DNA of 64,000 nucleotides from Alphaproteobacteria bacterium. GTDB taxonomy: Bacteria > Pseudomonadota > Alphaproteobacteria > MPNO01. A program made the translations under genes and the position numbers. Shown one piece after another: positions 1,139-22,703 of this stretch. The notes under the pieces are model-generated. The model did no database searches. It worked only from the letters and a program-made list of their open reading frames with translations, and had not been told where the DNA came from. The first letter of the stretch is position 1; each line of letters begins with the position of its first letter. Location of the stretch: the NCBI GenBank assembly GCA_965202835.1, contig CBDBCA010000002.1, forward strand, positions 1,392,427 to 1,456,426, read 5' to 3'.

Positions 1139-3806
1139 GGCTGCAGGCCAGCAGGCTGACCAGCGCGACGGTCAGCAACACGCCCATGCTCGCCGTCCCG
1201 GGGTGATGCGAGATCGCGAGGCTCGCGAAGGACGCCGCGGTGGTCAGTGCGCTGAACAGGACCGCGCGCGGCGTGCTGGAACGGATCGCCGGCGCGGCCG
1301 CGCCTTCGCGCCGCTCGCGCGCGAGCAGGTGAATCCCGTTGGCAACGCCCAGGCCGAACAGGAGCGGCAGCACGATGACGTTGGCGTGGTTGAAGGAGAG
1401 CCCGGTCGCGACCATCGCCGCGATGGCGATCGACGCCGCCAGCACCAAAGGGAAGAAGCCGATGGCGACCGACCGGAGCGAGCGAAGCGTCACCGCAAGC
1501 AAAAGCGCGATGGCGAGAATGGCGGTCGCCGTCGCCTGGAGGAACGACGCGATTACCGTGTTCCCCGCCTCCAGCACGGTAATCGGCGGACCCACGGCCC
1601 GCGGCGCCGCGCCCCGTACCGTTTCGACGAAACGGCGCAGCGCGTCCCTGTCCCGGTGAATCGGCGCCCGCGCGCGGATCTCGACCTTGGCGCGCCCGTC
1701 CCCCGCGACCCAGCGATCGCGCAGCGCGGCAGGGACCGCTCCGGCATCGACCGGCTCTGCGGAGAGCGCTTCCCGCAAACGCCCCACCGCCGCGGGGAGA
1801 TTCTTCAACAACCGATCCGAGAGACCGGTAAGCCGGCCGGGCGAGGGGTCGGAGTCGATCAGGCCGGCGAGCGCGGTGGCGAGGCGCCTCGCCGACCGGG
1901 CCTCCCCGCCTTCGCCCGTGGCCGCGAGCGCGTCCAGCGCCTGCCCGAGGGCGCGCAGCGCGTCCAGGGTCTCGGTCCCGGTGGGCGGCGGCACGCGGTC
2001 GGCGGCGAAGGCCGGATCGACCAGCTCCGCCACCTCCTCGACGATTTCGAGCTTGTCGTCCTGCCCGTCCGGCACGAAGCTCGACAGGGTCCGGACGCTC
2101 TCGACCTCGGGAAGTTGCTTGAGCCGGGCGGCGGCCGCGTCGGCCTCCGCGACCGAGCCAGCGAGCTGGACGAGCGCATAGCTATCGCCGTCGCCGCTCT
2201 CGACCAGCTCCATCACGGTCCGGACCGACTCGCTCTCCGGGTCCTTGAGGCGGAGCGGATCGAAATCGAAGCGCACAAACGGAGAGACCGTGGCGGTCGC
2301 GACGAGGACGACGCCGGCGGCGATGACGATGCCGCGCGCGCGGCCTTCGACGAGGCGCGCGACGGTCTCCGAGAACCCGCCTGCGCCGTCGCCCGCGCCG
2401 TCCGGCCGCACGCGGAGCACGGCGATGAACGCGGGCAGCAGGGTCATGGTCGCCAGGAAGCCGATCGCCATTCCGGCGCCGGCGATCAGGCCGAGCTCGG
2501 CGAGTCCCAGATACGGGGTCGGCAGGAAGGCGAGGAAGCCGATCCCCGCCGCGAGCCCGGCGAGCGCGAGCCCGGGCCCGACGCTGGCGGCGGCGAGCGC
2601 GTTGGCCGCGCCGCCTTCGAGCCCGAGCCTCGCCGCCTCGCGCCAGCGAAGCCCGTAATGGATGCCGAAATCGACGCAGAGCCCGATGAAGAGCACCGCG
2701 AAGGCAACCGAGATCAGGTTGAGCACGCCGACCGCGGCGGCGGCGAACGCCGCCGTCCACACCAGCCCGACGACGAGCGTGAGCAACGCGGCGAGCGAAA
2801 TGCGGATCGACCGGAAGCAGAGCAGCAGGAGCAGGCTCACCAGTCCAAACGAGAGAGCGCCCGCCAGCTCCATTCCCCCGCGCACGGATTGAAGCTCGTC
2901 GTGCCGGAGCGCGGGCCGGCCGGTGAGGCGCACGTCCACCCCCTCGCTCAGCTCGGCCGGCATGGAAGCGGCGATCTCGCGGATCGCGCCGATGGCCTCC
3001 CTGCCCGGCCGGAACCGGTCGAAGGCGAGCGCGATCTCGACCAGGAGGATCTGCCGCCTGCCGGAACGGCGGTCGTCGCCCGGGCCGAACATCAGGTTCA
3101 TCCAGGACAGCTCGCCCGGCTCCTTCCGGGCTTCCGCCAAGACAACGGCGGCAATGCGGTCCAGCGCGGCCGCGAGACCGTGGAGCCCGCTTTCCCCGCC
3201 CTCCTCGACGCGCTTTTCGACGGCGAGCGACAGCATCTCGGCGACACCCCGGATGCTGCGGTCCTGCCAGACCGTGCCGATGAAGGGCTGCGCGGCGAGG
3301 ATCCGGTCCGCCGTATCCTCCAGCTCCTCGATGGGCAGCAGGAGCAGCCCGTTGCGCCGGAAGAAGGGATCGCCCTGCGGATGGAACACCGAACGGAACA
3401 GGTCGGGCCGGCGGGCGATATCCGCGCGCATCCGGGCGGCGGCGCGTTCGGCCTGCTCCGGCGTCGCGCCGTCGATCACGACGACGAGGTCGCGCGCCTG
3501 TTTCGGGAAGGTCCTGCGCAGCTCGATGTTGAGTTGCCGGAAGTCGAGCTCGGCCGAAAGCATGTCGGCGGTGTCGGAATTGATCTTGACCGTGCGCGCA
3601 GCATAGATCCCGGCACCGACCGCGCTGACGACGGCAAGGACCGCGATCGGCCAGGCGAAGCGGTGGGCGATCCTGCCCCAGTGGGCGAAGAACCGTCCCG
3701 CCTTGCCGGTTTCCTGATAGGGCGGTGCTGTCAAGGAAGCCCTGGCGTTCAGGGAGGGGAAGGGCGCCGGCGCGTGGTTATGGGCGCTCCCGAGCCCGCC
3801 GGTCAA
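1089..3806 (-). CDS. RND/MMPL-family transporter, hopanoid biosynthesis-associated HpnN-like
   Basis: 905-aa ORF with two multi-TM blocks separated by periplasmic domains (MMPL architecture). Adjacent to the HpnA-like epimerase. The N-terminal start is uncertain because the first ~40 aa are low complexity. Confidence 0.7.
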   Translation of the reverse strand: MTGGLGSAHNHAPAPFPSLNARASLTAPPYQETGKAGRFFAHWGRIAHRFAWPIAVLAVVSAVGAGIYAARTVKINSDTADMLSAELDFRQLNIELRRTFPKQARDLVVVIDGATPEQAERAAARMRADIARRPDLFRSVFHPQGDPFFRRNGLLLLPIEELEDTADRILAAQPFIGTVWQDRSIRGVAEMLSLAVEKRVEEGGESGLHGLAAALDRIAAVVLAEARKEPGELSWMNLMFGPGDDRRSGRRQILLVEIALAFDRFRPGREAIGAIREIAASMPAELSEGVDVRLTGRPALRHDELQSVRGGMELAGALSFGLVSLLLLLCFRSIRISLAALLTLVVGLVWTAAFAAAAVGVLNLISVAFAVLFIGLCVDFGIHYGLRWREAARLGLEGGAANALAAASVGPGLALAGLAAGIGFLAFLPTPYLGLAELGLIAGAGMAIGFLATMTLLPAFIAVLRVRPDGAGDGAGGFSETVARLVEGRARGIVIAAGVVLVATATVSPFVRFDFDPLRLKDPESESVRTVMELVESGDGDSYALVQLAGSVAEADAAAARLKQLPEVESVRTLSSFVPDGQDDKLEIVEEVAELVDPAFAADRVPPPTGTETLDALRALGQALDALAATGEGGEARSARRLATALAGLIDSDPSPGRLTGLSDRLLKNLPAAVGRLREALSAEPVDAGAVPAALRDRWVAGDGRAKVEIRARAPIHRDRDALRRFVETVRGAAPRAVGPPITVLEAGNTVIASFLQATATAILAIALLLAVTLRSLRSVAIGFFPLVLAASIAIAAMVATGLSFNHANVIVLPLLFGLGVANGIHLLARERREGAAAPAIRSSTPRAVLFSALTTAASFASLAISHHPGTASMGVLLTVALVSLLACSLTVLPGLMLAWPMRRS

Positions 3807-3880
3807 GCGCCGGCCGCTCTTGAGTCCTTCGCGGCCCGCCCTATGCTTCGCGCGCGCCGATGTCCCCGAAGGAGCATGCG

Positions 3881-4429
3881 ATGACGCGATACCGGCCCGT
3901 CAGGCCCGAAACCATGAACGACGCCCAGAAGGCGGTATACGAGTCCATCGCGTCGGGGCCGCGCGGCGACGTGTTCGGGCCCTTCCCGGTGCTGCTGAAC
4001 AGCCCGGGGCTCGCCGACCAGGTGCAGAAGCTCGGCGCCTTCATCCGCTTCGGATCGTGCCTGCCGGGGAACCTGCGCGAGATAGCGGTCCTCGTGACAT
4101 CGCGGTTCTGGGCGGCCGAGTTCGAATGGTACGCGCACGCGCCCATCGCCCGCGAGGAAGGAGTTGCCGACGGGATCGTCGAGGCGATACGGACCGGCGC
4201 CGAGCCGTCCTTCGCGGACGAGGCGGAGGAGGCGGTCTATCGCTTCGCCGCCCAGCTGCACGAGACCCGCGACGTCGACGACGCGCTCTATGGCCGCGTC
4301 CAGGGGCTGATCGGGCAGGAGGCGCTCACCGACTTGATCGCGGTTTGCGGCTACTACACGATGCTCGCGATGACGCTCAACCTCTATCGCGTGCCGACGC
4401 CGGACGGATCGACCGCCTTCGGCGACTGA
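3881..4429 (+). CDS. carboxymuconolactone decarboxylase (CMD/AhpD-like) family protein
   Basis: The ORF-track protein 3860..4429 is trimmed to the second Met, which follows AAGGAG at the right spacing. A paralog lies at 46247..46792 (shared blocks NGPRG, GPFPVLL, SPGLAD, EWxAHAPIA). Confidence 0.7.
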   Translation: MTRYRPVRPETMNDAQKAVYESIASGPRGDVFGPFPVLLNSPGLADQVQKLGAFIRFGSCLPGNLREIAVLVTSRFWAAEFEWYAHAPIAREEGVADGIVEAIRTGAEPSFADEAEEAVYRFAAQLHETRDVDDALYGRVQGLIGQEALTDLIAVCGYYTMLAMTLNLYRVPTPDGSTAFGD

Positions 4430-4448
4430 GGCCGGGGAGGAGCGAGGG

Positions 4449-5210
4449 ATGGAGAAAGGCGCGGCCGTACTGGTCACCGGGGGCTCGTCCGGGATCGGCG
4501 CGGCGTCCGCCCTGCAGCTCGCCGAGAAGGGCTGCCGCGTGGCCGTCAACTACCGCGCCAACGAATCCGGCGCGGCGGACACCGTGGCGGCCTGCGAAGG
4601 CGCCGGGGTCGAGGCGTTCGCGATCCAGGGCGACGTATCCGACGATTCCGCGTGCCGCCGCATGGCCGAGGCGGTCGAGGCGCGCTGGGGCAGGCTCGAC
4701 GGGCTGGTCAACAACGCGGGCGCCACCCGGTTCCACGACCCCTTCGACCTGGAAGGGCTGACGGCCGACGACTTTGCTTCGTCCTACGCGGTCAACGTCA
4801 CCGGCGCGTTCCAGATGGCGCGCGCGGTCGTGCCGGCGATGAAGCGGGCGGGCGGCGGCGCGATCGTCAACGTGTCGTCCTTCGCCGCCGCGATCGGCGC
4901 CGGGAGCTCGATCGCCTATACCGCGTCCAAGGGCGCGGTGAACACGCTGACGCTCTGCCTCGCCCGGGTGCTCGCGCCCGAGATCCGGGTGAACTGCGTC
5001 GCGCCGACGCTCACCGACACCCGCTGGAACCGCTCCGGGCTCGGCGACAAGCGTTACGAGAAGGTCCTGTCGGGTTTCGTGGCCTCGGCCCCGCTCAAGC
5101 GCAAGATCGTCGCCGAGGACGTGGCCGACGCCATCGTCTGGCTGGTCACCGGCGCCGAGCTGGTGACCGGCGAGATCGTTCCGATCAGCGCCGGCACCCA
5201 TCTCGGTTAG
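4449..5210 (+). CDS. SDR-family oxidoreductase
   Basis: TGGSSGIG Rossmann motif, NNAG, and the SxnYxxxK catalytic pattern (YTASKGAV). Confidence 0.85.
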   Translation: MEKGAAVLVTGGSSGIGAASALQLAEKGCRVAVNYRANESGAADTVAACEGAGVEAFAIQGDVSDDSACRRMAEAVEARWGRLDGLVNNAGATRFHDPFDLEGLTADDFASSYAVNVTGAFQMARAVVPAMKRAGGGAIVNVSSFAAAIGAGSSIAYTASKGAVNTLTLCLARVLAPEIRVNCVAPTLTDTRWNRSGLGDKRYEKVLSGFVASAPLKRKIVAEDVADAIVWLVTGAELVTGEIVPISAGTHLG

Positions 5211-8228: not shown

Positions 8229-9194
8229 GTGAAGGCCTGGCGGTCGGGCGACGTCCCCGGCATAGAGGGCATCGCGCTCGCCGAGATCGCGCCGCCGCGC
8301 CCGGGCCCGGGCGAGTTGCTGATCCGTGTCGAGGCCGCGGCGATCAACTTCTCCGATCTCCTGATGATCGGCGACCGCTACCAGGTCCGCCCCGACCGTC
8401 CCTTCACCCCCGGCCAGGAGGTCGCCGGCGTCGTGGAGGAGGCCGGGCCGGGTGCGGCGATCCGCCCCGGCGCACGCATCGCCGCCAAGACGATCTGGGG
8501 CGGTTTCGCGGAGAAGGCCGTCGTCCGCGACGACATGGCGATGCGACTCCCCGACGGGATTCCGTTCGCGACCGGGGCCGCGCTGCCCGTGGTCTACACC
8601 ACCGCGGTCGTCGCGCTCACCGAGACCGCCTCCGTTCGCGAGGGCGACAGCGTCCTGGTCTTCGCCGCGACCGGCGGCATGGGCATCGCCGCAATGCAGG
8701 TCGCCAAGGCGCTCGGCGCGCGGGCGATCGCCGTCGCCTCGGGCGCGGCGAAGGAGGCGGTCGCCCGGGAGGAAGGCGCCGATGCCGTCATCCCCTCCGG
8801 CGCGGACGATTTCGTCGACCGCGCGATGGCGGCCTCGGGCGGAAGGGGGGTCGATATCGTCGTCGATACCGTCGGCGGCGAGGCGACGGCGCTTGCGCTG
8901 GAATGCCTCGCCTGGCGCGGCGAGCTCCTGATCGTCGGGTTCCTGAGCGGGGAGGTGCCCAGGATTCCGGGGCATCGGCTTCTGCTCAAGGGAGCGTCGG
9001 CGAAAGGCGTCTACTGGGACCACGACCGCGACCGGGCGCTCGTCGGGCGCGCCGTCCGCCGGGTGCTGGAGATGGCCGGGAGCGGTGCGATCCGGCCGCG
9101 CGTCGATACGCGCTACCGCCTCGCCGAACTGCCGCGCGCGCTACACGCGCTCGCACGGCGCGAGACGGTCGGCAAGCTGGTGCTTGCGACCTGA
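8229..9194 (+). CDS. NADPH:quinone oxidoreductase / zinc-independent MDR-family alcohol dehydrogenase-like
   Basis: MDR fold with an AxxGGxG nucleotide motif (AATGGMGIAAMQ). Confidence 0.8.
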   Translation: MKAWRSGDVPGIEGIALAEIAPPRPGPGELLIRVEAAAINFSDLLMIGDRYQVRPDRPFTPGQEVAGVVEEAGPGAAIRPGARIAAKTIWGGFAEKAVVRDDMAMRLPDGIPFATGAALPVVYTTAVVALTETASVREGDSVLVFAATGGMGIAAMQVAKALGARAIAVASGAAKEAVAREEGADAVIPSGADDFVDRAMAASGGRGVDIVVDTVGGEATALALECLAWRGELLIVGFLSGEVPRIPGHRLLLKGASAKGVYWDHDRDRALVGRAVRRVLEMAGSGAIRPRVDTRYRLAELPRALHALARRETVGKLVLAT

Positions 9195-9650
9195 TCCCGG
9201 TTGAGCGGACCGATTCGGCCACCTGCCGCCCGCCTTGCGCCAAGGGCGCGGCGGATGCCGCCGGACCGGATCGATCGAGGGTCAGTCTGAGAGAGAGTTG
9301 TCTCCGCTACGCCAGCGAGTTTGCGACTTGCACTTCTTGCAAATCCTTTCGCCGGCCCACGCACTCTCGAACATCTCACTGCACATCAGGCACGAACGCT
9401 CTCTGGCACTGTACCTGTGCTCCAACCCTTGCTCTTCAACTTCGTAGTCGAGTTCTTCCACATATCCACTCTATCCACAGACGCCTCGGAATGCAATGCC
9501 AAAATTGATTTGGCGACCCCCCTTCCGAAGTTTTTTGTTATAGGAGTGTGCGTGCAAAAGAGGTATCCGCAACGGGGTCGCGGTTCGCGCCCGTTTCGGC
9601 ATATGATGCGCGCCCTGCAACCGAACGGAGGCAGAATCGGAGGTCATGTC

Positions 9651-9866
9651 TTGAAAGAAGACTTGCTGGAGACGACCGGTACGGTAACCGAGAAGCTCCC
9701 CAACGCCATGTTCCGGGTCAAGCTCGAGAACGACCACGAGATCATCGCCCAGCCCAAGGGGAAGATGAGAAAATTCCGCATCCGCGTCATGGTCGGCGAC
9801 CGGGTCGACGTGGAGATGTCGCCCTACGACCTGAGCCGCGGGCGGATCACGTTCCGCCACAAATAG
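9651..9866 (+). CDS. infA: translation initiation factor IF-1
   Basis: 71-aa protein [68 protein letters not shown], closely matching the IF-1 S1-like fold. TTG start 7 nt after GGAGG. The ORF-track ORF 9321..9866 is an in-frame upstream extension. Confidence 0.9.
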
Positions 9867-9951
9867 CCGCGCGGCGTACAACGCCGCCATCGGGCGCCGC
9901 GACGCCGCCCGGCATGCCGGGCACGGACGCCGCGGCGGGAGAGGACGAATT

Positions 9952-11628
9952 GTGACCGAAACCGGGCGCGCAGCGAACGTCGCGGGCATCCGGAGCCCAC
10001 GCGGGTCCGAGCTGACCGCGAAGAGCTGGGCCACAGAGGCGCCGCTCCGCATGCTGATGAACAACCTCGACGCGGAGGTCGCCGAGCATCCCGAGGAACT
10101 CGTCGTCTATGGCGGGATCGGCCGGGCGGCGCGCAACTGGGACTGCTACCGCGCCATCGTGGAGTCGCTCACCCGCCTCGAGGAAGACGAGACCCTCTGC
10201 GTCCAGAGCGGCAAGCCGGTCGGCATCTTCCGCACCCACCCCGACGCGCCCCGCGTGCTGATCGCCAATTCCAACCTGGTCGGCGGCTGGGCCAACTGGG
10301 AGCATTTCAACGAGCTCGACCGCGCCGGGCTGATGATGTACGGCCAGATGACGGCGGGCTCGTGGATCTATATCGGCAGCCAGGGCATCGTCCAGGGCAC
10401 CTACGAGACGTTCTCCGAGGTCGGGCGCCAGCATTTCGGCGGCGATCTCGCGGGCAGGTGGATCCTGACCGGCGGGCTCGGCGGCATGGGAGGCGCGCAG
10501 CCGCTCGCCGCCACCATGGCCGGCGCGAGCCTGATCGCCGTGGAATGCCAGCCGAGCCGGATCGAGTTCCGCCTGAAGACCGGCTACCTCGACACCGAAG
10601 CCGCCTCGATCGACGAGGCGCTCGCGATCGTCGAGCGCGCGCGGGCGGACGGAAAGCCGGTCTCGGTCGGGCTGCTCGGAAATGCGGCGGAGATCTATCC
10701 CGAGATGCTGGAGCGCGGCATCCGACCCGACGCGGTGACCGACCAGACCTCGGCGCACGACCCGTCGAACGGCTACCTGCCGGCAGGCTGGACGCTGGAG
10801 GAATGGGCCGACCGGCGCGAGCGCGACCCGGCCGGCGTCGCCGAGGCGGCCAAGCGGTCGATGGCACGCCAGGTCGAGGCGATGCTCGCCTTCCACCGCG
10901 ACGGCATCCCGGTGCTCGACTACGGCAATAACATCCGCCAGATGGCGTCCGAGGCCGGGCTGAGGGACGCCTTCGACTTCCCGGGCTTCGTCCAGGCCTA
11001 TGTCAGGCCGCTGTTCTGCCGCGGCAAGGGGCCGTTCCGCTGGGCGGCGCTGTCGGGCGATCCGGAGGACATCTACCGCACCGACGAGACGGTGAAGGAG
11101 CTGCTGCCCGACGACCGGGCCCTCCATACCTGGCTCGACATGGCGCGCGAGCGGATCCACTTCCAGGGGCTGCCTTCCAGGATCTGCTGGCTCGGGCTCG
11201 GCGATCGCGACCGGGTGGGGCTCGCCTTCAACGAGCTCGTGCGGTCGGGCGAGATAAGCGGGCCCATCGTGATCGGCCGCGACCACATGGATTCGGGCTC
11301 GGTCGCGAGCCCCAACCGCGAGACCGAGGGGATGCTCGACGGCACCGACGCGGTCGCCGACTGGGCGTTCCTCAACGCGATGCTCAACACCGCCTCGGGC
11401 GCCACCTGGGTCAGCATCCACCACGGCGGCGGGGTCGGCATGGGCTATTCGCAGCACGCCGGCATGGTGGTGCTCGCCGACGGCACCGACGACGCCGAAC
11501 GCAAGCTCGCTCGCGTGCTGTGGAACGACCCCGGCTCCGGCGTGATGCGCCACGCCGACGCGGGCTACGACATCGCGATCGAGACCGCCCGCGCCCACGG
11601 CCTCGACCTGCCGATGCTGGAGGGTTAG
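9952..11628 (+). CDS. hutU: urocanate hydratase
   Basis: 558 aa with urocanase motifs ([39 protein letters not shown]). GTG start. Confidence 0.9.
11400..11628 (+). repeat. left copy of the roughly 229-bp direct repeat (3' end of intact hutU) flanking the inserted cassette
   Basis: Re-occurs at 13763-13991 with 4 substitutions, all synonymous in the hutU frame. Confidence 0.85.
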
Positions 11629-11788
11629 CCGGGCGCGAGGTTTCCTCCCCTTCCCGTCACGATGGCGGCGCGCCCGATGTCTCGCCACGACCGGTCGGCA
11701 AGCCGGTTACGCAACGCTGGCGATATTCTGCGCGCTGCCCCATGATGGCGGAATACTGCTGGGGAACATCCTCGACGCGGCACGTCCA

Positions 11789-13075
11789 ATGCGCATCGAT
11801 CGGCTAACTGTCTCGAACTTCAAGAAATTCGAAGAGGAAACCTTCGAATTTCATCGCCAATTCACGCTTCTGGTGGGCGACAACGGCGCTGGCAAGACGG
11901 CCGTCCTGGATGCACTTCGTATCGGCGTGGGTGCATACCTGCTCGGGATCCCTTACGGGCAAGCACCCTCGATCAAACGGGAATATGTGCGGCGAGAGAC
12001 CAGACGAAATGGGGAGTTCTCGACTTTCGAGCCCGTCACGCCATCCGTGGTCGGATGCGAAGGACGCGTGCATCTTTCCGATCTTCGCTGGAATCGCGAA
12101 TTGGCCTCGTTCCGTGGGCGAACGAATCGAGTCGGGGCGCGGGAACTTGTACGGTGCGTCGCCAAGTACTTTCGGGAAAACGATCCGGGAATGAACTTCC
12201 CGCTGATCGTTTCGTACGGCACGGGGCGTTTGTGGATCGAGCCGCGGACCACGAAGAAAGCCCGCTCCGCAGTCCGCGAGCCTCTCGGCCGGCTGTCCCG
12301 GTTCGAAGCCTATCGCGGCTGCCTTGGCCCAGCGGTTTCGTCCGAATTGCTGCGCCGGTGGATCAAGAAAATGGCGCTGATCGCGGTTCAAGAGAAGCAG
12401 TCGCTGGCGAGTCTCGATGCGGTCTATTCGGCGGTTGTGGGCTGCGTCGAGGGTGTGGACCGGGCGCTTTACGATTTCGACCTCGACGATATTGCGCTCG
12501 ATTTCGAGGATGGAGAACGTTATCCGTTCGGCTTCCTTAGCGACGGGCAAAGAAGCATGGCGGCACTCGCTGCCGACATCGCGTTGCGATGCGTTCAACT
12601 GAACCCACATCTGGCGGGGGAGGCGCCGCACGAGACCGAGGGCGTGGCGCTGATCGATGAGTTGGACCTCCACTTGCATCCGAATTGGCAGCGCGTCGTT
12701 GTGCGCAACCTGACCTCCCTCTTTCCGAAATTGCAGTTTGTCGCCACGACGCACTCGCCGTTCATCGTTCAGTCGCTCGACGGTCAAGGGCTGGTCAATC
12801 TCAGCGATCGGGGCGTTCTGGAGGAACGAAAGGAGCCGTACAGTATCGAAGACGTGGCCGAAGAAACCATGGGCGTGGATGCGCCACAACGGAGCAAGCT
12901 GTTTCTGGAAATGGAGGCTGCGGCGGGGCGCTACTACGAACTCCTTGATCGGTTGAGCGAAGACGATCCGGCCGTAATACAAGCGAAGGCGGAGTTGAAC
13001 CGAATCGAAGCGCGCTTCTCCGACAATCCGGCATACGCCGCTTTGCTGAAGCTGCAGCGTTCTGCGGCCGAGTAG
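11789..13075 (+). CDS. ABC-type (AAA_15/AAA_21-like) ATPase, Septu PtuA-like
   Basis: Walker A GDNGAGKT, signature-like LSDGQRS, Walker B ALIDELDLHLHP, H-loop TTHSP. Lower GC than its surroundings. Immediately followed by an HNH nuclease gene. Confidence 0.7.
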   Translation: MRIDRLTVSNFKKFEEETFEFHRQFTLLVGDNGAGKTAVLDALRIGVGAYLLGIPYGQAPSIKREYVRRETRRNGEFSTFEPVTPSVVGCEGRVHLSDLRWNRELASFRGRTNRVGARELVRCVAKYFRENDPGMNFPLIVSYGTGRLWIEPRTTKKARSAVREPLGRLSRFEAYRGCLGPAVSSELLRRWIKKMALIAVQEKQSLASLDAVYSAVVGCVEGVDRALYDFDLDDIALDFEDGERYPFGFLSDGQRSMAALAADIALRCVQLNPHLAGEAPHETEGVALIDELDLHLHPNWQRVVVRNLTSLFPKLQFVATTHSPFIVQSLDGQGLVNLSDRGVLEERKEPYSIEDVAEETMGVDAPQRSKLFLEMEAAAGRYYELLDRLSEDDPAVIQAKAELNRIEARFSDNPAYAALLKLQRSAAE

Positions 13076-13092
13076 CGGAAGCCAACAGCGCG

Positions 13093-13713
13093 ATGCGATC
13101 GGTCGAACGCGGATCGTGGCCGACCGAAAGCGACGGCCACCGGAAGTCCTTCTCCCAGTACGGGCACGTGAAAGCGCCGCTAATCGAAAGAATTGGCGAG
13201 TATTGCAGCTATTGCGAGCGTCCCGGCGACCTCCATGTCGAACACGTCGTTCCCAAATCTGTGAAGGACGACCTCGAAAATGAGTGGTCGAATTTCCTGC
13301 TCGGATGCGCAAATTGCAACAGCCGCAAGTCGGACAAAAACGCTTCGAGAGATGGGTATCTTTGGTCGGATCGCGACGACACGTTCGGCGCCTTCGTATA
13401 CCGGCCGGGCGGAAGGGTGTCGGTGAACGGCGGACTTGCGCGGCCGCAGCGTGGTAAGGCGGCGGCGCTGTTCGACCTTGTCGGGCTCGGCGAAACGGGA
13501 ACCCGCACCGACAGACGCCGCCGCAAAAGGCGCCAAGCCTGGGATCAAGCAGTCAAAGTTCGCGACCTCATCAACAACGGTAATTCAAGGACTCTTGCCG
13601 TCGACTTGGCTGTGGCAATCGGATTCTTCAGCGTTTGGATGGCGGTGTTTCACGAGGACAAAGATATGCGTAACCGCTTGGTAAACGCATTTCCGGGAAC
13701 GCGAACGGGATAG
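13093..13713 (+). CDS. HNH endonuclease, Septu PtuB-like (TIGR02646-type)
   Basis: HNH motif [19 protein letters not shown]...[12 protein letters not shown]. 18 bp downstream of the ATPase gene. Confidence 0.7.
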
Positions 13714-14106: not shown

Positions 14107-14907
14107 CTACAGCGTCATCAGGTCCTCGCCGATGACCAGCGCGCCGGCGTAGTCGCGGCGAATGATCTCGCTGAGCTCGCGGGGTTCGGAGTCCGGCAGC
14201 ATGTGGGTGGTGACCAGCAGGCCGACATCGGCGTCCTTCGCCACCAGGGAAAGCCGTTCCGGCGAGGTGTGGGCGTGCGGGGTGTGGCTCTTGTCGATAT
14301 CGGGCGCCTTCCACCTGTCGTATTGCACGCATTCGTGGATCAGCACGTCCGCGCCGTGCGCGTGGCGGATCAGGTTCTCGCAGGGACAGGTGTCGCCCGA
14401 CAGCACGATCCGGCGGTCCTTCGATTCGAAGAGGTAGCCGAAGGGCTGATCCAGCGGATAGTGGTCCACGTCGAAGGCGGTCACCCGGACCCCGTCGACC
14501 TCGGTGGCGAGGCCCTGGTCGATCTCGTGCACCACGATGTTCGGCATCCCGCGCGGCGTCTTCCGGATCTTCATCCGCATTTCGAGGTCCGGGCGGTGCA
14601 TTTCCAGCAACTGCTCGACCATCGTCCGGATGCCCGGCGGCCCGTAGACGTGCCAGGGCGTGTCGCCGCCGTAGATCCAGCGGCAGATGATGAAATGCCC
14701 GAGATCGATGTAGTGGTCGGAATGGAGATGCGTGATGAACAGATGGTCGACCTGGTCCGGACTGACTCCCGCCTCGACCATGCGCGCGACGATGCCCGAG
14801 CCGCAATCGACCACGAAGTTGCTGGCGCCCGCGCGGACCACGTAGCCCGGGCCGCGGCGCTTGGGGTTAGGAAACGGCAGCCCGGTTCCCAGAAGGCTGA
14901 CTTGCAT
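14107..14907 (-). CDS. MBL-fold metallo-hydrolase
   Basis: HLHSDH metal-binding motif. Start at MQVSLLGTG. The upstream part of the ORF-track ORF is not coding. Confidence 0.8.
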   Translation of the reverse strand: MQVSLLGTGLPFPNPKRRGPGYVVRAGASNFVVDCGSGIVARMVEAGVSPDQVDHLFITHLHSDHYIDLGHFIICRWIYGGDTPWHVYGPPGIRTMVEQLLEMHRPDLEMRMKIRKTPRGMPNIVVHEIDQGLATEVDGVRVTAFDVDHYPLDQPFGYLFESKDRRIVLSGDTCPCENLIRHAHGADVLIHECVQYDRWKAPDIDKSHTPHAHTSPERLSLVAKDADVGLLVTTHMLPDSEPRELSEIIRRDYAGALVIGEDLMTL

Positions 14908-15041
14908 GGTGTCTCTCCCGGTCGGCGGTGCGAAGACCCGAACCGTACCACCAGCGGGGGTGGCGCACATGCGGGACACAGGTTTCCAGTTTAGGCGAAT
15001 TTCGGTATTGATTTGGTATGATATCAGCCCAATTTATGGGT

Positions 15042-15305
15042 ATGGAGTTCGAATTCGATCCGGAGAAGCGCGCCGCGAACGAGATCGAGCACGGCATCGA
15101 CTTCGATGACGCGCAGGCGCTTTGGGACGATCCCTGGCTGCTCGAAGCGCCGGCCCGGACGGAAGACGAGCCGCGCTTTATCATGATCGGCAGGATCGGG
15201 GATCGGCACTGGTCGGCGGTCTGCACGTTCCGCGGCGAACGCATACGGATTATCTCGGTCCGCCGCGCACGCAATGAGGAGGTCGAGCGCTATGAAAGCC
15301 CATGA
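15042..15305 (+). CDS. brnT: type II toxin BrnT (DUF497 ribonuclease)
   Basis: MEFEFDPEKRAANEIEHGIDFDDAQALWDDP...RIISVRRARNEE matches the BrnT family signature. It overlaps the downstream RHH antitoxin gene by 14 nt. Confidence 0.75.
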   Translation: MEFEFDPEKRAANEIEHGIDFDDAQALWDDPWLLEAPARTEDEPRFIMIGRIGDRHWSAVCTFRGERIRIISVRRARNEEVERYESP

Positions 15306-15516
15306 GTTCGACCGGGCCTTCGATTCCGGGGAGGATGTGAGCGGGCAGGTGGACTGGTCGCGGGCGCGGCGGGTGAATACCGAGTCCAGGCGCGTCAACG
15401 TGGATTTCCCGGCCTGGGTCGTCGCCGCGCTCGACCGGCAGGCCAGGATGCACGGCGTGCCGCGGCAATCCCTCATCAAGCTCTGGATCGCCGAACGGCT
15501 GAAGCAAATCTCCTGA
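15292..15516 (+). CDS. brnA: type II antitoxin BrnA (CopG/RHH-like)
   Basis: Small protein MKAHEFDRAFDSGEDV...PAWVVAALDRQARMHGVPRQSLIKLWIAERL. Toxin-first BrnTA order. Confidence 0.7.
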   Translation: MKAHEFDRAFDSGEDVSGQVDWSRARRVNTESRRVNVDFPAWVVAALDRQARMHGVPRQSLIKLWIAERLKQIS

Positions 15517-15622
15517 GGGCAGAGCGCGGGACGTTCGCGACCGCGTCGCAGCCCTCCGTCGCTGCCGCGGCTCGGGCGACAGCCGGCTCAGTCCTGCCGA
15601 CTGTCGCCCCGCGAACCCGCGC

Positions 15623-16630: not shown

Positions 16631-18558
16631 GGATAGCCTCCCTCTTCCTGATTCGCCGGGCGCCGCTCGACGGACGAGCCGGCCATCCGGCTTTCGACCA
16701 CGAACGACGCCGCCACGCCGGCGGCGCTCACGCCCGCGACCAGCGGATCCGGTACCAGCACCGCGACGCCGGCGGCGATCCGCACGAATCTTTGTACCGG
16801 CCCGATGGGCCCGATGGAATAGGCCCCGAGCCCCGTCGCGAGCGCCACCGTCGAGACCAGGAAAACGCCTATTCCCCACGCCAGACCGACATAGGTGAAC
16901 CCCGTCTCCACCAACACGATGCTGGGGTGGTAGACGAAGATGAAGGGGATCAGGAAGCCCGCGATCGCAAGACGGACCGCGACCACGCCGGTCTCGATCG
17001 GTTTCGAGCCGGCAATGGGCGCGGCGGCGAAGGCGGCGATGGCGACCGGCGGGGTGATCGCCGACAGCACCGCGTAGTAGATCACGAAGAGGTGGGTGAG
17101 CAGAAGCGAAAGCCCGAGCTTGCCGAGCGCCGGCCCGATGATCAGCACGATGATCAGATAGGCCGCGCCCACCGGCACGCCCATGCCCAGCAGCAGGCAG
17201 CCGATCGCCATCACGACCAGCGACAGGAACAGGCTGTCCCCCGCGATCGACAGGATGGTCGCGGCGAACTTGATGCCGAGCCCCGACATGTTGACCATGC
17301 CGACGACGAAGCCGATCGCGGCAACGACGATCATGATGGTCGCGCAGGTGCGCCCGCCGCGCATCAGGGCGGCGAGGATCTTCCGGGGCGACCGGAACTC
17401 CGGATAGAGGACGAGCGACAGCACGAACGCCGAGATCAGGCCGTAGAAGCCGGCGTTCTGGGCCGTCCGCCCGGTCATCAGCACGTAGACGATGACACCG
17501 AGCGGCACGAAGAACGAGATCGAGCGGATCCAGTCGGTGGTGTCCAGCCTGACCCGCTCCGCCTTCGGGGTCGGCCGGAGCCCCTGCCGCCGCGCTTCCA
17601 GCCAGACCACGGAGAACAGGCTGAGGTAATACATCAGCGCCGGGATCGCCGCGGCCGCGATGATGGTGAGGTAGGGGATCCCCGTAAGGTCGGCCATCAG
17701 GAACGCGACCGCGCCCATCACCGGCGGCATGATCTGCCCGCCGGTCGACGCGGCCGCCTCGACCGCCCCCGCGAATTTGGACCGGAAGCCGGTCCGCTTG
17801 ATCATCGGGATGGTGAAGACGCCGGTGGTCACCACGTTGGCGACGGCGGCGCCGTTCATGGTGCCGAAGCTGGCGCTGCCGATGATCGCCGCGTGCGCCG
17901 GGCCGCCGCGCAGCGGGCCGGTCACCGCGAAGGCGAATTTGAGGAGCGTCGCGCCGGCGCCCGAGGTCTCGAGGACCGCGCCGAACAGGATGAACACCAG
18001 CACGATCTGGCCGACCACGGCGACCGGGCGGCCGAACACCCCGTCGGTGCTGTACCAGAGCTTCTCCGAGATCAGGAACCACTTGACCTCCGGGATGTTG
18101 AGCGTGCCCGGAATCAGGTTCCCGAAGAGCAGGATCACCAGCGAGAGCAGGCAGACGAGGAACAGCGGGAGGCCGAAATGCCGGTAGGTGAGGTAGAACA
18201 GCAACGCGATCCCGGCGAAGCCCACCAGGTAGTCGAACACCGAGAATTCGACGAAGAAGTCGAGCTGCTCCGTCATCAGCGTGATCCAGAGGTAGTAGAT
18301 CGGCGCGAGCGCGAGCAGCATCCCGGCGTTGAGCGCGATCGAGCCCCAGGCGACGTCCTCGCGCCTCACGTCCATGTTCTCGGTGGAGAAGCAGAGCAGC
18401 GAGATCAGGATCGGCAGCCCGGTGGTGCCGGCGCGCACCCAGACCTCGTCGAACACCCCGAACCCGGCGACGTAGATCGCGAACGCCGCCAGCCCGAGCG
18501 CGAGCACGTCGGCGACCCTCCGGCTATACGCGACGATGCGATCCCTTGGCGACTGCAC
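16627..18558 (-). CDS. TRAP transporter fused permease subunit (TAXI-associated)
   Basis: 643-aa polytopic membrane protein. Confidence 0.8.
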   Translation of the reverse strand: MQSPRDRIVAYSRRVADVLALGLAAFAIYVAGFGVFDEVWVRAGTTGLPILISLLCFSTENMDVRREDVAWGSIALNAGMLLALAPIYYLWITLMTEQLDFFVEFSVFDYLVGFAGIALLFYLTYRHFGLPLFLVCLLSLVILLFGNLIPGTLNIPEVKWFLISEKLWYSTDGVFGRPVAVVGQIVLVFILFGAVLETSGAGATLLKFAFAVTGPLRGGPAHAAIIGSASFGTMNGAAVANVVTTGVFTIPMIKRTGFRSKFAGAVEAAASTGGQIMPPVMGAVAFLMADLTGIPYLTIIAAAAIPALMYYLSLFSVVWLEARRQGLRPTPKAERVRLDTTDWIRSISFFVPLGVIVYVLMTGRTAQNAGFYGLISAFVLSLVLYPEFRSPRKILAALMRGGRTCATIMIVVAAIGFVVGMVNMSGLGIKFAATILSIAGDSLFLSLVVMAIGCLLLGMGVPVGAAYLIIVLIIGPALGKLGLSLLLTHLFVIYYAVLSAITPPVAIAAFAAAPIAGSKPIETGVVAVRLAIAGFLIPFIFVYHPSIVLVETGFTYVGLAWGIGVFLVSTVALATGLGAYSIGPIGPVQRFVRIAAGVAVLVPDPLVAGVSAAGVAASFVVESRMAGSSVERRPANQEEGGYP

Positions 18559-18864
18559 GTTCGGGCTCTCCCGGCCGGGCGACGGACAGGCGTGGCGAGA
18601 TTATAGCAACCCGGGCGCGGTGGGAGGGGTATTCCCCCTTCGGTCATGGTCGGGACCGTCCTGTTTCGTCATTTCCGCAACTCCGGGATTCGCATACAGC
18701 CTCCCATCACTGGTCTAGAATGGTCCGGCAGCGTGGCCTTGGGCGTTGCCAACCGACCGGATCGGCCCAGGGGCGAGTCGGCCGACCCTGCCGTGCGTGC
18801 CGCACAAGCGCGCTCGGCGCGTTGGGCCGGATAGGCCCACCGCGGGTCGTGGAGGAGATGCCGG

Positions 18865-20604
18865 ATGCTTACCAAGCTCACCGTCCGGAACTTCAAACGC
18901 TTCGGGGCGGTCGAGATCGAGCTCGGCAATCCGGTCGTGTTCATCGGGCCGAACAATTCGGGGAAGACCTCGGCGATGCAGGCCCTGGCGCTGTGGGATA
19001 TCGGCGTCAAGCGGTGGAACGAAAAGCGGGCCGGCAAGAGCGCGCCGGAAAAGCGTCCCGGCGTAACGGTCAACCGGAGGGACCTCTTCGCCATCCCTCA
19101 TCCGAGCGCCGTACACCTGTGGCGCGACCTGCACGTGCGGGACGTCCGGAGCGTCGAGGGGCGGCAAAGCACCGACAACGTGCGTATCGACCTGATCGTC
19201 GAAGGGGTCGACGAGGGCAAGGTCTGGACCTGCGGCCTGGAATTCGACTACGCGAACGAGGAATCGTTCTATTGCCGGCCGCTGCGGCTTGACGACGCCA
19301 AGCCGCCGAAGCGGATGCCGATCCCGAACGAAGCCGGATCGCTACGCATCGCCTTTCTGCCACCCATGTCCGGTCTGGCCGCGACCGAGACCCGGCTCGA
19401 TCAGGGCGCGGTGAACGTGAGGGTCGGCGAGGGTCGAACGGCCGAAGTCCTCCGCAACCTGTGTTTCCGCATCCTGACGGAGAATCCCGACGGGTGGGCT
19501 TCGCTGGTGACGCGTATCGAAGGCCTGTTCGGCGTGGAACTCGAAGAGCCCCGTTATGTCGAGGAACGGGGAGAAATTACCATGGGGTACCGGGAACATG
19601 GTTCGGCCCTGGACCTCTCGTCCAGCGGGCGCGGCTTGCAGCAAACGCTCCTGATCCTCGCCTACATGCACGCCAATCCGGGCGCGGTCATCCTGCTGGA
19701 CGAGCCGGACGCGCATCTCGAAATCCTCCGCCAGCGCCAGATCTACAGCCTCATCGCGGCGGTTGCGTCGGAAAGCGGCAACCAGATCGTCGCCGCGAGC
19801 CATTCCGAGGTGTTGCTCAACGAAGCCGCAGACAAGGACCTCGTGATCGCCTTCGTCGGCAAGCCGCACCGGATCGGCGACGGGCAGAGTCAAGTGCGCA
19901 AGGCGCTGGCGGAGATCGGCTTCGATCAGTACTACCAGGCCGAGCAGACCGGCTGGGTGCTCTATCTCGAAGGCTCGACCGATCTGGCGATATTGCAAGC
20001 GTTCGCGAGGAGGCTCGGCAAGGACAGGGCCGTCCGGGCGCTGGAAAGACCGTTCGTCCGCTATGTCGGGAACAGCCCGCCGACGGCCGCGCACCACTTC
20101 CACGGGCTGAGGGAAGCCATTCCCGGCCTCAAGGGGGTGGCCCTCTACGACCGTCTCGAACCAGGCGCGCCGGACGATCCGTATCTCCGACATCTGGTCT
20201 GGCACCGGCGGGAGATCGAGAACTATCTCTGTACCCGGACGACCCTGGAGACTTACGCTCGCGCGTCCGCCATGGCGGCCGAGCCGAGACCCCTGCTCGC
20301 CCCCCTTGAAGTCGACGGTCGGTTGACGGCTATGGACGAAGCGATCGGGGAGGTAAGCCGGGCCCTCGAAACCCTCGGCAAGGGATCGCCCTGGGAGAAT
20401 GACCTTAAGGTGAGCGACGAGTTCTTGACGCCGCTCTTCAAGGCCTATTTCGAGCGGATCGGCATCCCCAACCTGATGAGCAAGAAGAACTTCTACGAGC
20501 TCGCCGACTACGTTCCTGAGGCAGAGATCGACCCGGAAATCGGCGAAAAGCTGGATGCGATCGCCACGGTCGCGGAGAGCGCGAGGCCGGCGGAGGAGGA
20601 ATAG
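18865..20604 (+). CDS. stand-alone OLD-family-like ATPase with Toprim-like C-terminal domain (GajA / class-1 OLD / fused PARIS-like)
   Basis: Walker A GPNNSGKTS, signature-like LSSSGRGLQQ, Walker B VILLDEPDAHLE, H-loop ASHS. The C-terminal ~230 aa carry a Toprim-like E...D pattern (VLYLEGSTDLAILQ, VALYDRLEP). It is flanked by about 300 bp and 180 bp non-coding gaps and unrelated genes. Confidence 0.65.
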   Translation: MLTKLTVRNFKRFGAVEIELGNPVVFIGPNNSGKTSAMQALALWDIGVKRWNEKRAGKSAPEKRPGVTVNRRDLFAIPHPSAVHLWRDLHVRDVRSVEGRQSTDNVRIDLIVEGVDEGKVWTCGLEFDYANEESFYCRPLRLDDAKPPKRMPIPNEAGSLRIAFLPPMSGLAATETRLDQGAVNVRVGEGRTAEVLRNLCFRILTENPDGWASLVTRIEGLFGVELEEPRYVEERGEITMGYREHGSALDLSSSGRGLQQTLLILAYMHANPGAVILLDEPDAHLEILRQRQIYSLIAAVASESGNQIVAASHSEVLLNEAADKDLVIAFVGKPHRIGDGQSQVRKALAEIGFDQYYQAEQTGWVLYLEGSTDLAILQAFARRLGKDRAVRALERPFVRYVGNSPPTAAHHFHGLREAIPGLKGVALYDRLEPGAPDDPYLRHLVWHRREIENYLCTRTTLETYARASAMAAEPRPLLAPLEVDGRLTAMDEAIGEVSRALETLGKGSPWENDLKVSDEFLTPLFKAYFERIGIPNLMSKKNFYELADYVPEAEIDPEIGEKLDAIATVAESARPAEEE

Positions 20605-20786
20605 CGTCGGCACGCCAGGACGCCGCCATAGCGGAATGAACGATAGCGGCGACGACTTTCGGCGAGACAATGCGTCAACACGCGAAGCCAGCCGTCTGAC
20701 GGACCGAAGGAAACAGTGCTCCGCGGGCGAAGCGTTGGCCCGCCGGGCGCCAGGTCGCGCGCCCCGGGGACGCGAAACGCCCGCCG

Positions 20787-21509
<723 letters not shown>

Positions 21510-21527
21510 GTCGCTCGCCCCCCTTCC

Positions 21528-22703
21528 TCAGTTGCGTTCGACGCACATGGCGATGCCCATGCCGCCACCGATGCAGAGCGTCGCGAGCCCCCTCGCGGCG
21601 CCGCGCCGTTTCATCTCGTGCAGGAGTGTGACGAGGATCCGCGCGCCCGAGGCGCCGATCGGGTGGCCGAGCGCGATCGCCCCGCCGTTCACGTTCACCT
21701 TCTCCATGTCGAAGCCGAGGTCGCGCGCCACCGCGCAGGATTGCGCCGCGAAGGCCTCGTTCGATTCCACGAGGTCGACGTCGCCGATGCTCCACCCGGC
21801 CGTCTCCAGCGCCTTGCGGCTCGCCGGGATCGGGCCCGAGCCCATCAGCGCCGGATCGACGCCCGCCGTCGCCCAAGAGACGATGCGCCCGAGCGGCTCG
21901 ATCCCGCGCCGCGCCGCCTCGTCCGCGGTCATCAGCACCAGCGCCGCCGCGCCGTCGTTGATGCCGGACGCGTTCCCCGCCGTCACCGTGCCGTCCTTCG
22001 CGAAGGCGGGCCGCAGCTTGGCCAGTGTCTCGACCGTGGTGCCGTGGCGCGGATACTCGTCGGCGTCCACCGCGATGTCGCCCTTACGATGAGGCACGAC
22101 GGCCGGCGCGATCTCGTCCGCGAACCGGCCCGCCTTCTGCGCTTGCTCCGCCTTGGCCTGGCTGGCGGCGGCGAATTCGTCCTGCTCGGCGCGGGGGATC
22201 TGCCAGCGCTCGGCCACGTTCTCCGCCGTGGTGCCCATGTGGTAGCCGTGGAAGGCGTCCCACAGCCCGTCCCTGATCATCGTGTCGGTGAAGGCGAAAT
22301 CGCCCATCTTCTGGCCCGCGCGCATGTGGGCCGCGTGCGGCGAGAGGCTCATGCTCTCCTGCCCGCCGGCCACGACGATCCCGGCATCGCCGGCGCGGAT
22401 CGCCTGGCCCGCCATCGCGACCGCGCGCAGCCCCGAGCCGCACACCTGGTTGATGGTGAGCGCGGTCTTCTCCTGGGGAATGCCGGCGGCCATCGCGGCC
22501 TGCCGGGCCGGGTTCATGCCGCAGCCGGCGGTCAGCACCTGGCCCATCACCGCCTCGTCGACCTCCGCGCCGTCCACACCCGCGCGCGCAAGCGCGGCCC
22601 CGATCGCGGCCTTGCCGAGGTCGACGGCGGGGACGCTCGCAAACGCGCCGTTGAACGCGCCGATCGGGGTGCGGGCGGCACCCGCGATGACGATGTCTGT
22701 CAT
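21528..22703 (-). CDS. phaA: acetyl-CoA C-acetyltransferase (thiolase II)
   Basis: [15 protein letters not shown], active-site NQVCGSGL, and C-terminal [11 protein letters not shown]...CIGGGMG. The ORF-track 5' extension is excluded. Confidence 0.85.

Follow-up and report, generated by a model that had tools for sequence, protein, structure and literature searches.

Of the OLD-like enzymes, those encoded by a single gene form the class about which least is understood. A 2023 review named P2 Old as the only single-gene OLD protein then shown to defend against phage (PMC10568477), and there has since been a report of phage defense by a class 1 OLD protein of Vibrio cholerae (PMC12392090). Among related systems, Gabija (class 2 OLD) pairs GajA, also an ABC ATPase with a Toprim domain, with GajB, a helicase resembling UvrD/PcrA/Rep, while PARIS (class 4) is activated by release of AriB, whose metal-binding set is E26, D30, D88, E90, and E122 (PMC11464382). 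Here we describe a gene in a 64-kb stretch of an alphaproteobacterial contig (CBDBCA010000002.1; the whole stretch is referred to as the window) that encodes a 579-amino-acid protein joining an ABC-type ATPase to a Toprim-like C-terminal domain. We read it, with a probability of about 0.65, as a stand-alone, single-polypeptide antiphage enzyme of the OLD/PARIS group, in which the ATPase would act as sensor and switch and a linker would tether an AriB-type two-metal Toprim nuclease with a helical tail. An earlier note, made from the sequence of the window, had proposed a single-gene antiphage nuclease or partner-less variant, and the analysis supports that proposal overall, with no conserved partner in 81 loci.

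The ATPase head and the Toprim domain

The open reading frame (ORF) runs from an ATG through 579 codons with zero internal stops, as given by the mechanical ORF list and its translation, and a protein on record, P0001, is 100% identical to its product. Length alone is no proof of a gene here, because spurious long ORFs are frequent at the window's GC content of 67%; an example is a frame of 844 amino acids that overlaps the gene in antisense (19342 to 21876) and has no Pfam matches. That the ORF is a genuine gene and not such a frame follows from its Pfam matches, more than 8,000 homologous protein clusters (at 90% identity), a GC content at third codon positions (GC3) of 0.83, and ratios of nonsynonymous to synonymous substitution (Ka/Ks) of 0.07 to 0.35 against relatives, indicative of purifying selection. 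The best 120 homologous clusters are nearly all 574 to 587 amino acids long.

All sequence motifs quoted in the earlier note lie where it placed them (Table 1), among them VLYLEGSTD, which begins at residue 365, and LYDRLEP, at residue 427. The N-terminal part matches Pfam AAA_15 and AAA_21 with E values of ~2e-17 (64.1 and 64.2 bits), which, with the motifs located, bears out the complete ABC-ATPase head described in that note; both scores exceed the thresholds applied in PARIS detection (32 bits for AAA_15 and 27 bits for AAA_21; PMC9122126). In a full-length AlphaFold2 model, computed from an alignment of 111 sequences, both domains are confident and the linker at residues 315 to 346 is disordered, and the head includes a beta-rich lobe (residues ~92 to 139) and a three-helix insert (residues 180 to 222). 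The best solved Foldseek matches of this model are the OLD protein of Thermus scotoductus (TsOLD; PDB 6p74) and GajA, in keeping with the OLD/GajA-like layout that had been suggested; PtuA and the heads of Rad50 and SMC come next. The most variable patch of the protein, residues 205 to 213, lies in the helical insert, and further variable patches occur at residues 434 to 443 (the beta3-beta4 loop) and 469 to 472; one might speculate that these are candidate recognition surfaces.

Table 1. Features of the ATPase-Toprim gene and its flanks, in window coordinates
Feature	Coordinates	Strand	Residues	Basis or remark
Complete gene, fused ABC-ATPase and Toprim nuclease	18865..20604	+	579 aa + stop	ORF list, translation, identical P0001, Ka/Ks
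ABC-type ATPase head, AAA_15/AAA_21	18865..19890	+	1-342	Pfam, AlphaFold2 model, Foldseek
Walker A, GPNNSGKTS	18946..18972	+	28-36 (K34)	K34 in 80/80 copies
ABC signature motif, LSSSGRG	19615..19635	+	251-257	G255 in 80/80, S252 in 79/80 copies
Walker B and D-loop, VILLDEPDAHLE	19687..19722	+	275-286 (D279, E280)	E280 in 80/80, D279 in 79/80 copies
H-loop, ASHS	19795..19806	+	311-314 (H313)	H313 in 80/80 copies
Flexible linker joining the two domains	19807..19902	+	315-346	pLDDT <50 in full-length model
Toprim core	19951..20232	+	363-456	Predicted strands 364-368, 398-400, 423-428, 441-445; motifs LYLEGxTD, HF, W..REIENY
Toprim acidic codons	19969-19971; 19981-19983; 20149-20151	+	E369; D373; D429	
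Toprim acidic codons	20212-20214; 20218-20220	+	E450; E452	
C-terminal helical bundle	20233..20589	+	457-575	Predicted helices 458-472, 476-503, 516-532, 540-549, 557-572
Upstream noncoding gap	18559..18864	.		Start 18206 if DctM uses its later start; no recognizable element
Downstream noncoding gap between convergent ends of the gene and phaB	20605..20786	.		182 bp

For the C-terminal domain, the AlphaFold2 model and Foldseek matches to AriB and OLD Toprims indicate a Toprim fold with conserved acidic residues predicted to bind metal. The earlier note had described a Toprim-like domain and suggested checking it for a Toprim or DUF4435 fold; the model points to a Toprim fold, and Pfam gave no DUF4435 match. 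In the model, the end of beta1 carries E369, followed one helical turn later by D373 (LYLEGxTD); D429 is placed at the end of beta3, and E450 and E452 directly after beta4 (W..REIENY). These five residues are kept in 78 to 80 of 80 copies, and K515 and D564 are conserved in the helical bundle. In structural comparison, AriB is the better match, aligning over 176 residues, compared with 132 to 148 for the OLD Toprims; a Foldseek search gives the same ranking (AriB, a class 2 OLD Toprim, and again AriB), with weak E values (3e-3). Single substitutions of the Toprim acids (E369K, D373N, D429G, D429N, and E452G) were scattered over 5 of the 80 copies (L018, L078, L024, L058, and L020); possible explanations are sequencing error and the occasional loss of activity of a costly nuclease.

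None of the model libraries tested detects this domain. Searched alone, residues 331 to 579 gave zero Pfam matches at an E value of ≤10, and residues 347 to 579 remained unmatched by PADLOC, NCBIfam, and PHROG models even at permissive thresholds, so the PADLOC check proposed earlier came back empty for the C-terminal domain. Pfam searches of 31 diverse family members revealed no Toprim, DUF4435, RloB (PF13707), or DUF3226 (PF11536) match. A profile of the domain run against all PDB sequences found no solved relative, its top match, a bile-acid receptor, being a chance hit (E value of 0.04). Since the nuclease domain escapes these models, defense censuses built on Pfam, PADLOC, NCBIfam, and PHROG probably miss the family. 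An exhaustive domain-only search marks the family as modest in size: at 50% identity it returned 759 clusters, of which 137 had an E value of ≤1e-30. In full-length proteins the domain always occupies approximately residues 330 to 580, after the same ATPase. A split, two-gene version of the family was considered and rejected: the short domain matches start anywhere between residues 151 and 504 and are assembly fragments, so the domain is known solely in fused form.

Genomic neighborhoods and distribution

We compared the neighborhoods of 81 loci, namely, 80 genome loci and the window. In an all-against-all clustering of the flanking ORFs, no neighbor family occurred in more than 18 loci, and the commonest was a generic SDR whose position varies. 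Among 149 immediate neighbors, a Pfam census counted 159 families, the commonest of which was seen 5 times. Most of these neighbors have metabolic roles, as with sulfatases, cupins, and desuccinylases; DruA, HsdR, other AAA_15/21 ATPases, and nucleotidyltransferases turn up occasionally. The gene family has no conserved partner. Local candidates, among them an ~1500-amino-acid AAA/HEAT ORF, an AAA_15/21 gene with DUF3696, and an AddB-like nuclease, proved to be lineage specific or mutually unrelated.

Some of these local associations are of interest in their own right. An ORF of ~1500 to 1780 amino acids on the same strand, with weak AAA/AAA_16 and HEAT-repeat matches, ends 50 to 80 bp upstream of the gene in four Vicinamibacterales loci and one Syntrophobacterales locus (L033:1374-5924, L041:1400-5950, L044:1441-5994, L062:633-5963, and L038:1416-5951, all plus strand); it may be a STAND-like NTPase that is a lineage-specific neighbor. 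A second AAA_15/AAA_21 ATPase lies ~15 bp downstream in Latescibacterota, Syntrophobacterales, and Binatia (L027:7740-8537, L038:7740-9521, and L057), with a DUF3696 match in L038. The downstream flanks of these three loci share 76 to 80% DNA identity across phyla, which looks like a two-gene block cotransferred in a subset of the family. Two loci have DruA-like (Druantia) genes in the vicinity of the gene (L001:3216-4139 and L082:11112-11993); L082 has an IS66-family transposase directly downstream of the gene, and L083 has IS-type transposases on both sides.

One recurrent association is with type I restriction-modification (R-M) systems. In six loci of different taxa (L007, L012, L013, L026, L055, and L084), hsdR directly follows the gene, the order in L084 being hsdM-hsdS-gene-hsdR. 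In L019, hsdM follows the gene, and in L016/L083 the gene is directly preceded by an HsdM fragment, and transposase genes occur a few kilobases upstream and immediately downstream. The hsdR genes of the six loci are 75 to 89% identical across taxa, and the hsd cassette with the gene seems, judging by this similarity, to move together as a whole. In L084, hsdM is called in two pieces and hsdR in six (2928-4531; 8765-11911), with the ATPase-Toprim gene intact, the result of either a decaying R-M system or assembly frameshift errors.

PrrC/RloC and the Rlo genes encode ABC-ATPase-like proteins fused to a nuclease that reside inside type I R-M operons and act as a backup when phage proteins disable restriction; PrrC, a fusion with an RNA nuclease, holds the equivalent position in the prr locus. 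By analogy, our gene could be an obligate R-M accessory that works only with Hsd proteins, the window copy having been orphaned when its R-M system was lost or became separated from it. The placement exactly between hsdS and hsdR in six loci of different taxa with closely related hsdR genes, the HsdM fragment in L016/L083, and the parallel with PrrC all speak for such a guard. However, R-M linkage concerns roughly 10% of loci, and ~90% have no Hsd gene within 6 kb, nor does the 64-kb window (the search seeds represented one Hsd family, and divergent R-M systems may have been missed), and the gene is intact in L084 where hsdM and hsdR are called in short pieces. We therefore regard obligate dependence on Hsd proteins as improbable.

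Relatives are also carried by phage. A full-length relative with 63% identity (L085) shares its phage contig with genes for the large subunit of terminase, a DNA methylase, and a TET-associated glycosyltransferase, and another with 54% identity (L086) comes from a contig that also encodes a phage-tail/GTA-like protein along with a C5 methylase. Sets from cultured organisms contained no phage record of the family and one plasmid match, at 25% identity.

Copies 68 to 93% identical to the window protein occur in metagenome-assembled genomes (MAGs) whose record titles assign them to Alpha- and Gammaproteobacteria, Acidobacteriota (Vicinamibacterales, Bryobacterales), Chloroflexota, Gemmatimonadota, Nitrospirota, Latescibacterota, Bacteroidota (Rhodothermales), Spirochaetota, Binatia, and Thermodesulfobacteriota. 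Misbinning cannot explain this spread, since many of the records are complete multimegabase chromosomes. The gene is resident and vertically inherited within several lineages, as its GC content (0.48 to 0.72) tracks each host and flanks and synteny are kept within lineages: in the window's own lineage, the order TRAP-gene-phaB-phaA is found again in L002, and L003 and L004 have phaB-phaA on the downstream side. Flanking DNA is similar within lineages only; between phyla, similarity ends at the ORF boundaries, the exceptions being the hsdR-linked loci and one small group. For about one-third of copies, the nearest relative comes from another phylum or class, and the protein tree mixes phyla. 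Synonymous divergence (Ks) is 0.46 between a gammaproteobacterium and a member of the Longimicrobiales (Gemmatimonadota), both complete chromosomes from the same sample, and 0.51, 0.77, 0.81, and 0.88 for other interphylum pairs. Such unsaturated values are incompatible with vertical descent and indicate repeated, fairly recent transfer; the family has spread horizontally through at least 10 bacterial phyla.

Four of the genomes that carry the gene are sponge MAGs on record (Robbins 2021, supplementary file 9), obtained from Rhopaloeides odorabile, Aplysina aerophoba, and Carteriospongia foliascens, and many other carriers, whose records bear UUIDs as isolate names, resemble entries of sponge genome notes in which the accompanying metagenomes are deposited. 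Lateral transfer of R-M and CRISPR genes among sponge symbionts is reported, in general terms, in PMC8163846. The family is not limited to sponges, because more distant members (58 to 65% identity to the window protein) occur in MAGs of Anaerolineae, KSB1, Nitrospinales, Pyrinomonadaceae, Saprospiraceae, and Parcubacteria. Degraded copies were also observed. In L034, a gammaproteobacterial chromosome, a second copy (2372-3674) lies ~2.3 kb upstream of the intact one, with 76% identity over residues 1 to 278 and 57% over residues 395 to 569 in different frames, and an internal stop interrupts the copy in L057 (Binatia).

These patterns bear on two readings in which the gene would not serve defense. 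The first is a housekeeping ATPase for DNA repair or chromosome maintenance, a RecF/SbcC/Rad50-like paralogue. It would account for the strong purifying selection and nearly fixed length, the chromosomal position among metabolic genes in the window with synteny within lineages, and the weak SMC_N and RecF matches that span the P-loop region; an archaeal OLD-family ATPase with a cell cycle role is reported in PMC12796447. However, the neighborhoods are heterogeneous and hold no repair partner. Unsaturated interphylum Ks and a protein tree that mixes phyla, relatives on phage contigs, copies embedded in type I R-M operons, the degraded copies, and the absence of the family from the cultured-organism phage and plasmid sets, save the one plasmid match, likewise argue against this reading, which we consider highly improbable.

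The second is a selfish gene, a toxin-like nuclease kept by its own mobility or addiction with no net host benefit. Only the ORF itself is common between phyla, and the Toprim acids are substituted in 5 of 80 copies whereas K34, E280, and H313 are intact in all 80, as would fit a costly nuclease. A mobile-element interpretation was nevertheless rejected, there being no terminal repeats, target duplications, tRNA, integrase, noncoding RNA (ncRNA), or conserved insertion site, and the gene has no conserved antitoxin-like partner and is stably inherited under purifying selection within several lineages. We judge a selfish gene to be the least probable of the readings weighed here.

In the window, genes for a TAXI-TRAP permease (DctM) and its binding protein lie upstream on the minus strand, and phaB (SDR, 20787-21509) followed by phaA (thiolase) lies downstream, also on the minus strand. 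This is the location given in the earlier note, and the downstream gap of about 180 bp held; its upstream gap of ~300 bp depends on the start of DctM, being 306 bp for the start at 18558 (longest ORF) and 659 bp for that at 18205 (gene call). As that note had said, no helicase (GajB) or DUF4435 partner is adjacent; neither these nor a reverse transcriptase or type I R-M gene was found anywhere in the window. Scans revealed no sigma-70-like promoter upstream and no promoter-like site, tRNA, or meaningful repeat in either gap, Rfam gave no match at or above the gathering score in 17800-21200, and no integrase, ncRNA, or notable direct or inverted repeats were found around the gene. A terminator-like hairpin in the downstream gap (minus strand, 20733-20718) is of a kind whose frequency equals that expected by chance, and a 62-bp stretch is the only part of the upstream gap shared with the closest relative (L002).

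Comparison of the window with L081, the contig of P0001, gave 100% identity for the target protein and 98 to 99% for phaB and phaA; the adjacent TAXI binding protein and DctM are merely ~90% identical, a mosaic that suggests that closely related strains have recombined within the locus. Some 5 kb upstream of the gene, a PtuA-like AAA_15/AAA_21 ATPase of 428 amino acids ends near 13019 (region ~12865-13657, corresponding to L081:1-793) and is followed by an HNH protein (~13037-13657), which together look like a Septu-like pair. A Lactamase_B gene on the minus strand (~14108-14908) matches the anti-Pycsar Apyc1 family; next come genes for a BrnT toxin (15037-15306) and for an antitoxin of the CopG-like kind (15293-15517). 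With these Apyc1-like, BrnT, and CopG-like genes, defense- and toxin-antitoxin-type genes are plentiful upstream of the TRAP genes.

A possible mode of action

We infer a defense role from the architecture, the nearest structural relatives, carriage by phage, embedding in R-M operons, and horizontal spread. In the uninfected cell, the ATPase head, probably oligomeric, would hold the attached nuclease inactive. It would then sense, in an ATP-dependent manner, a phage-derived cue; the most plausible candidate is a protein of the phage, for instance an anti-restriction factor, in view of the ~10% of copies that lie between hsdS and hsdR. The Toprim site (E369, D373, D429, E450, and E452) would thereby be unmasked and would cut host or phage nucleic acid, and phage production would stop (abortive infection). 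Because the nuclease is fused to the ATPase and release as in PARIS is impossible, activation must be conformational or oligomeric.

We lean toward a PARIS-like logic, with a protein trigger and an RNA or tRNA target, because AriB has the closest fold, over the largest number of residues, and one-tenth of copies lie inside type I R-M operons. PARIS itself is activated by a phage anti-restriction protein, Ocr, and cleaves tRNA-Lys. By analogy with AriB, the substrate could be tRNA or another RNA, an assignment we put forward tentatively; nicking or degradation of DNA, by analogy with class 1 OLD enzymes, is a possible but doubtful alternative. That alternative belongs to a reading of the whole protein as a class 1 OLD-type DNA nuclease, which would nick phage or host DNA or degrade it 5' to 3' in response to the state of the cell, RecBCD inhibition for example, rather than to a phage protein, as P2 Old and TsOLD are described to do. 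The DNA-cutting mode stays a serious rival because AriB leads the OLD Toprims by a small margin in structural match. Nevertheless, AriB aligns over more residues, the OLD-type DxD is not conserved, the Pfam OLD-like Toprim and PADLOC Old models miss the C-terminal domain, the ATPase scores better with AriA than with Old or GajA models of PADLOC, and the type I R-M linkage suits an anti-anti-restriction logic better, so that we take a class 1 OLD nuclease to be possible without being likely.

Within the preferred reading of a stand-alone OLD/PARIS-group enzyme, it is conceivable, although we think it unlikely, that the family forms a community-wide anti-anti-restriction guard of sponge microbiomes, which would back up type I restriction against phage anti-restriction proteins. 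In this scenario, a phage-mediated sweep would have carried the gene through at least 10 phyla of coresident symbionts, the tether-specific activation, and possibly the trigger and substrate, would be unlike those of any characterized OLD or PARIS system, and the high conservation would stem from a target common to the hosts.

The two-domain architecture itself would be expected by specialists. Less trivial are the size of the family, its invisibility to the hidden Markov model libraries tested, the clean interphylum spread in host-associated communities, and the existence of natural R-M-embedded variants. The family offers an unusually clean case of one defense-type gene crossing phyla inside one host-associated community, and its compactness, high conservation, and R-M-embedded variants make it a practical system for the study of tethered-Toprim control, of tRNA versus DNA targets, and of the generality of restriction-linked guards.

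Comparison with known systems

Several assignments could be set aside. Gabija is rejected as an identity because its GajB context is absent: no UvrD/PcrA/Rep-like helicase lies next to the window gene or is among the commonest families of the neighbor census. GajA has the same two kinds of domain, and PADLOC GajA models span residues 245 to 387 of the window protein, reaching into the start of the Toprim domain. For a retron (class 3 OLD), there is no reverse transcriptase among the called neighbors and no Rfam match in the region scanned. For an AbiL/RloB-type system, RloB is unmatched, and AbiLi models align to the ATPase only. The nuclease domains of PrrC/RloC and the Rlo proteins are unrelated to Toprim, and the window family is R-M linked in just ~10% of copies. 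PrrC is among the proteins mentioned in PMC12409363.

Class 1 OLD proteins (P2 Old, TsOLD, and the V. cholerae protein; PMC12392090) are encoded, like the window protein, by a single gene without a conserved partner. They differ in the canonical DxD after beta3, which the window family lacks, D429 alone being conserved in a consensus of FDRL. Neither the Pfam OLD-like Toprim nor the PADLOC Old models cover the C-terminal domain, the Old model being confined to the P-loop region, and the helical tail aligns better with AriB.

With respect to PARIS and merged AriAB proteins (PMC9122126, PMC11464382), the predicted structure places the window nuclease domain in the AriB type. The E-x3-D pair and the aspartate at +60 agree closely with those of AriB; in contrast, the family has no conserved counterpart of E90, the second acid in the D88-x-E90 pair. 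Sequence identity between AriB and the window C-terminal domain is ~13%, DUF4435 (PF14491) and the PADLOC AriB and AriAB models fail on this domain, and the AriAB model aligns to residues 269 to 343 only. The monomer model shows only the three-helix insert and no long coiled coil like the insertions from which AriA builds its hexameric scaffold. PARIS also has a split two-gene form, whereas none was found for the window family.

A sequence-level bridge is provided by a family of ~598-amino-acid fused ATPase-Toprim proteins on IMG/VR contigs (L089 to L098; e.g., L091:7962-9758), which carry the motifs LIVEGxSD, RDRDD, and WRRRHIENYLL and match DUF3226 below its 27-bit cutoff (E values of 3e-5 to 4e-3). 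By hhalign, its C-terminal domain aligns with that of the window protein over 177 columns, including the helical tail (probability of 96.7%; E value of 3e-10), and the two domains are homologous on this profile evidence. Both families have the same two-domain layout and share the motifs (V/L)EGxxD and W(R/x)RR.IENYL. The viral family, which appears to be uncharacterized, differs in retaining the full RDRDD and in its prophage-like contigs, and overall identity to the window protein is merely 21 to 26%.

Since every sequence-model test of the nuclease domain failed and the canonical DxD is lacking, we file the window family as a distinct, unnamed one, outside the described merged-AriAB clades and class 1 OLD proper. 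By its structure, the window protein belongs to the OLD family broadly defined, and by its single-gene organization it fits class 1 as defined genomically; its nuclease domain, as modeled, is closest to that of class 4 (PARIS).

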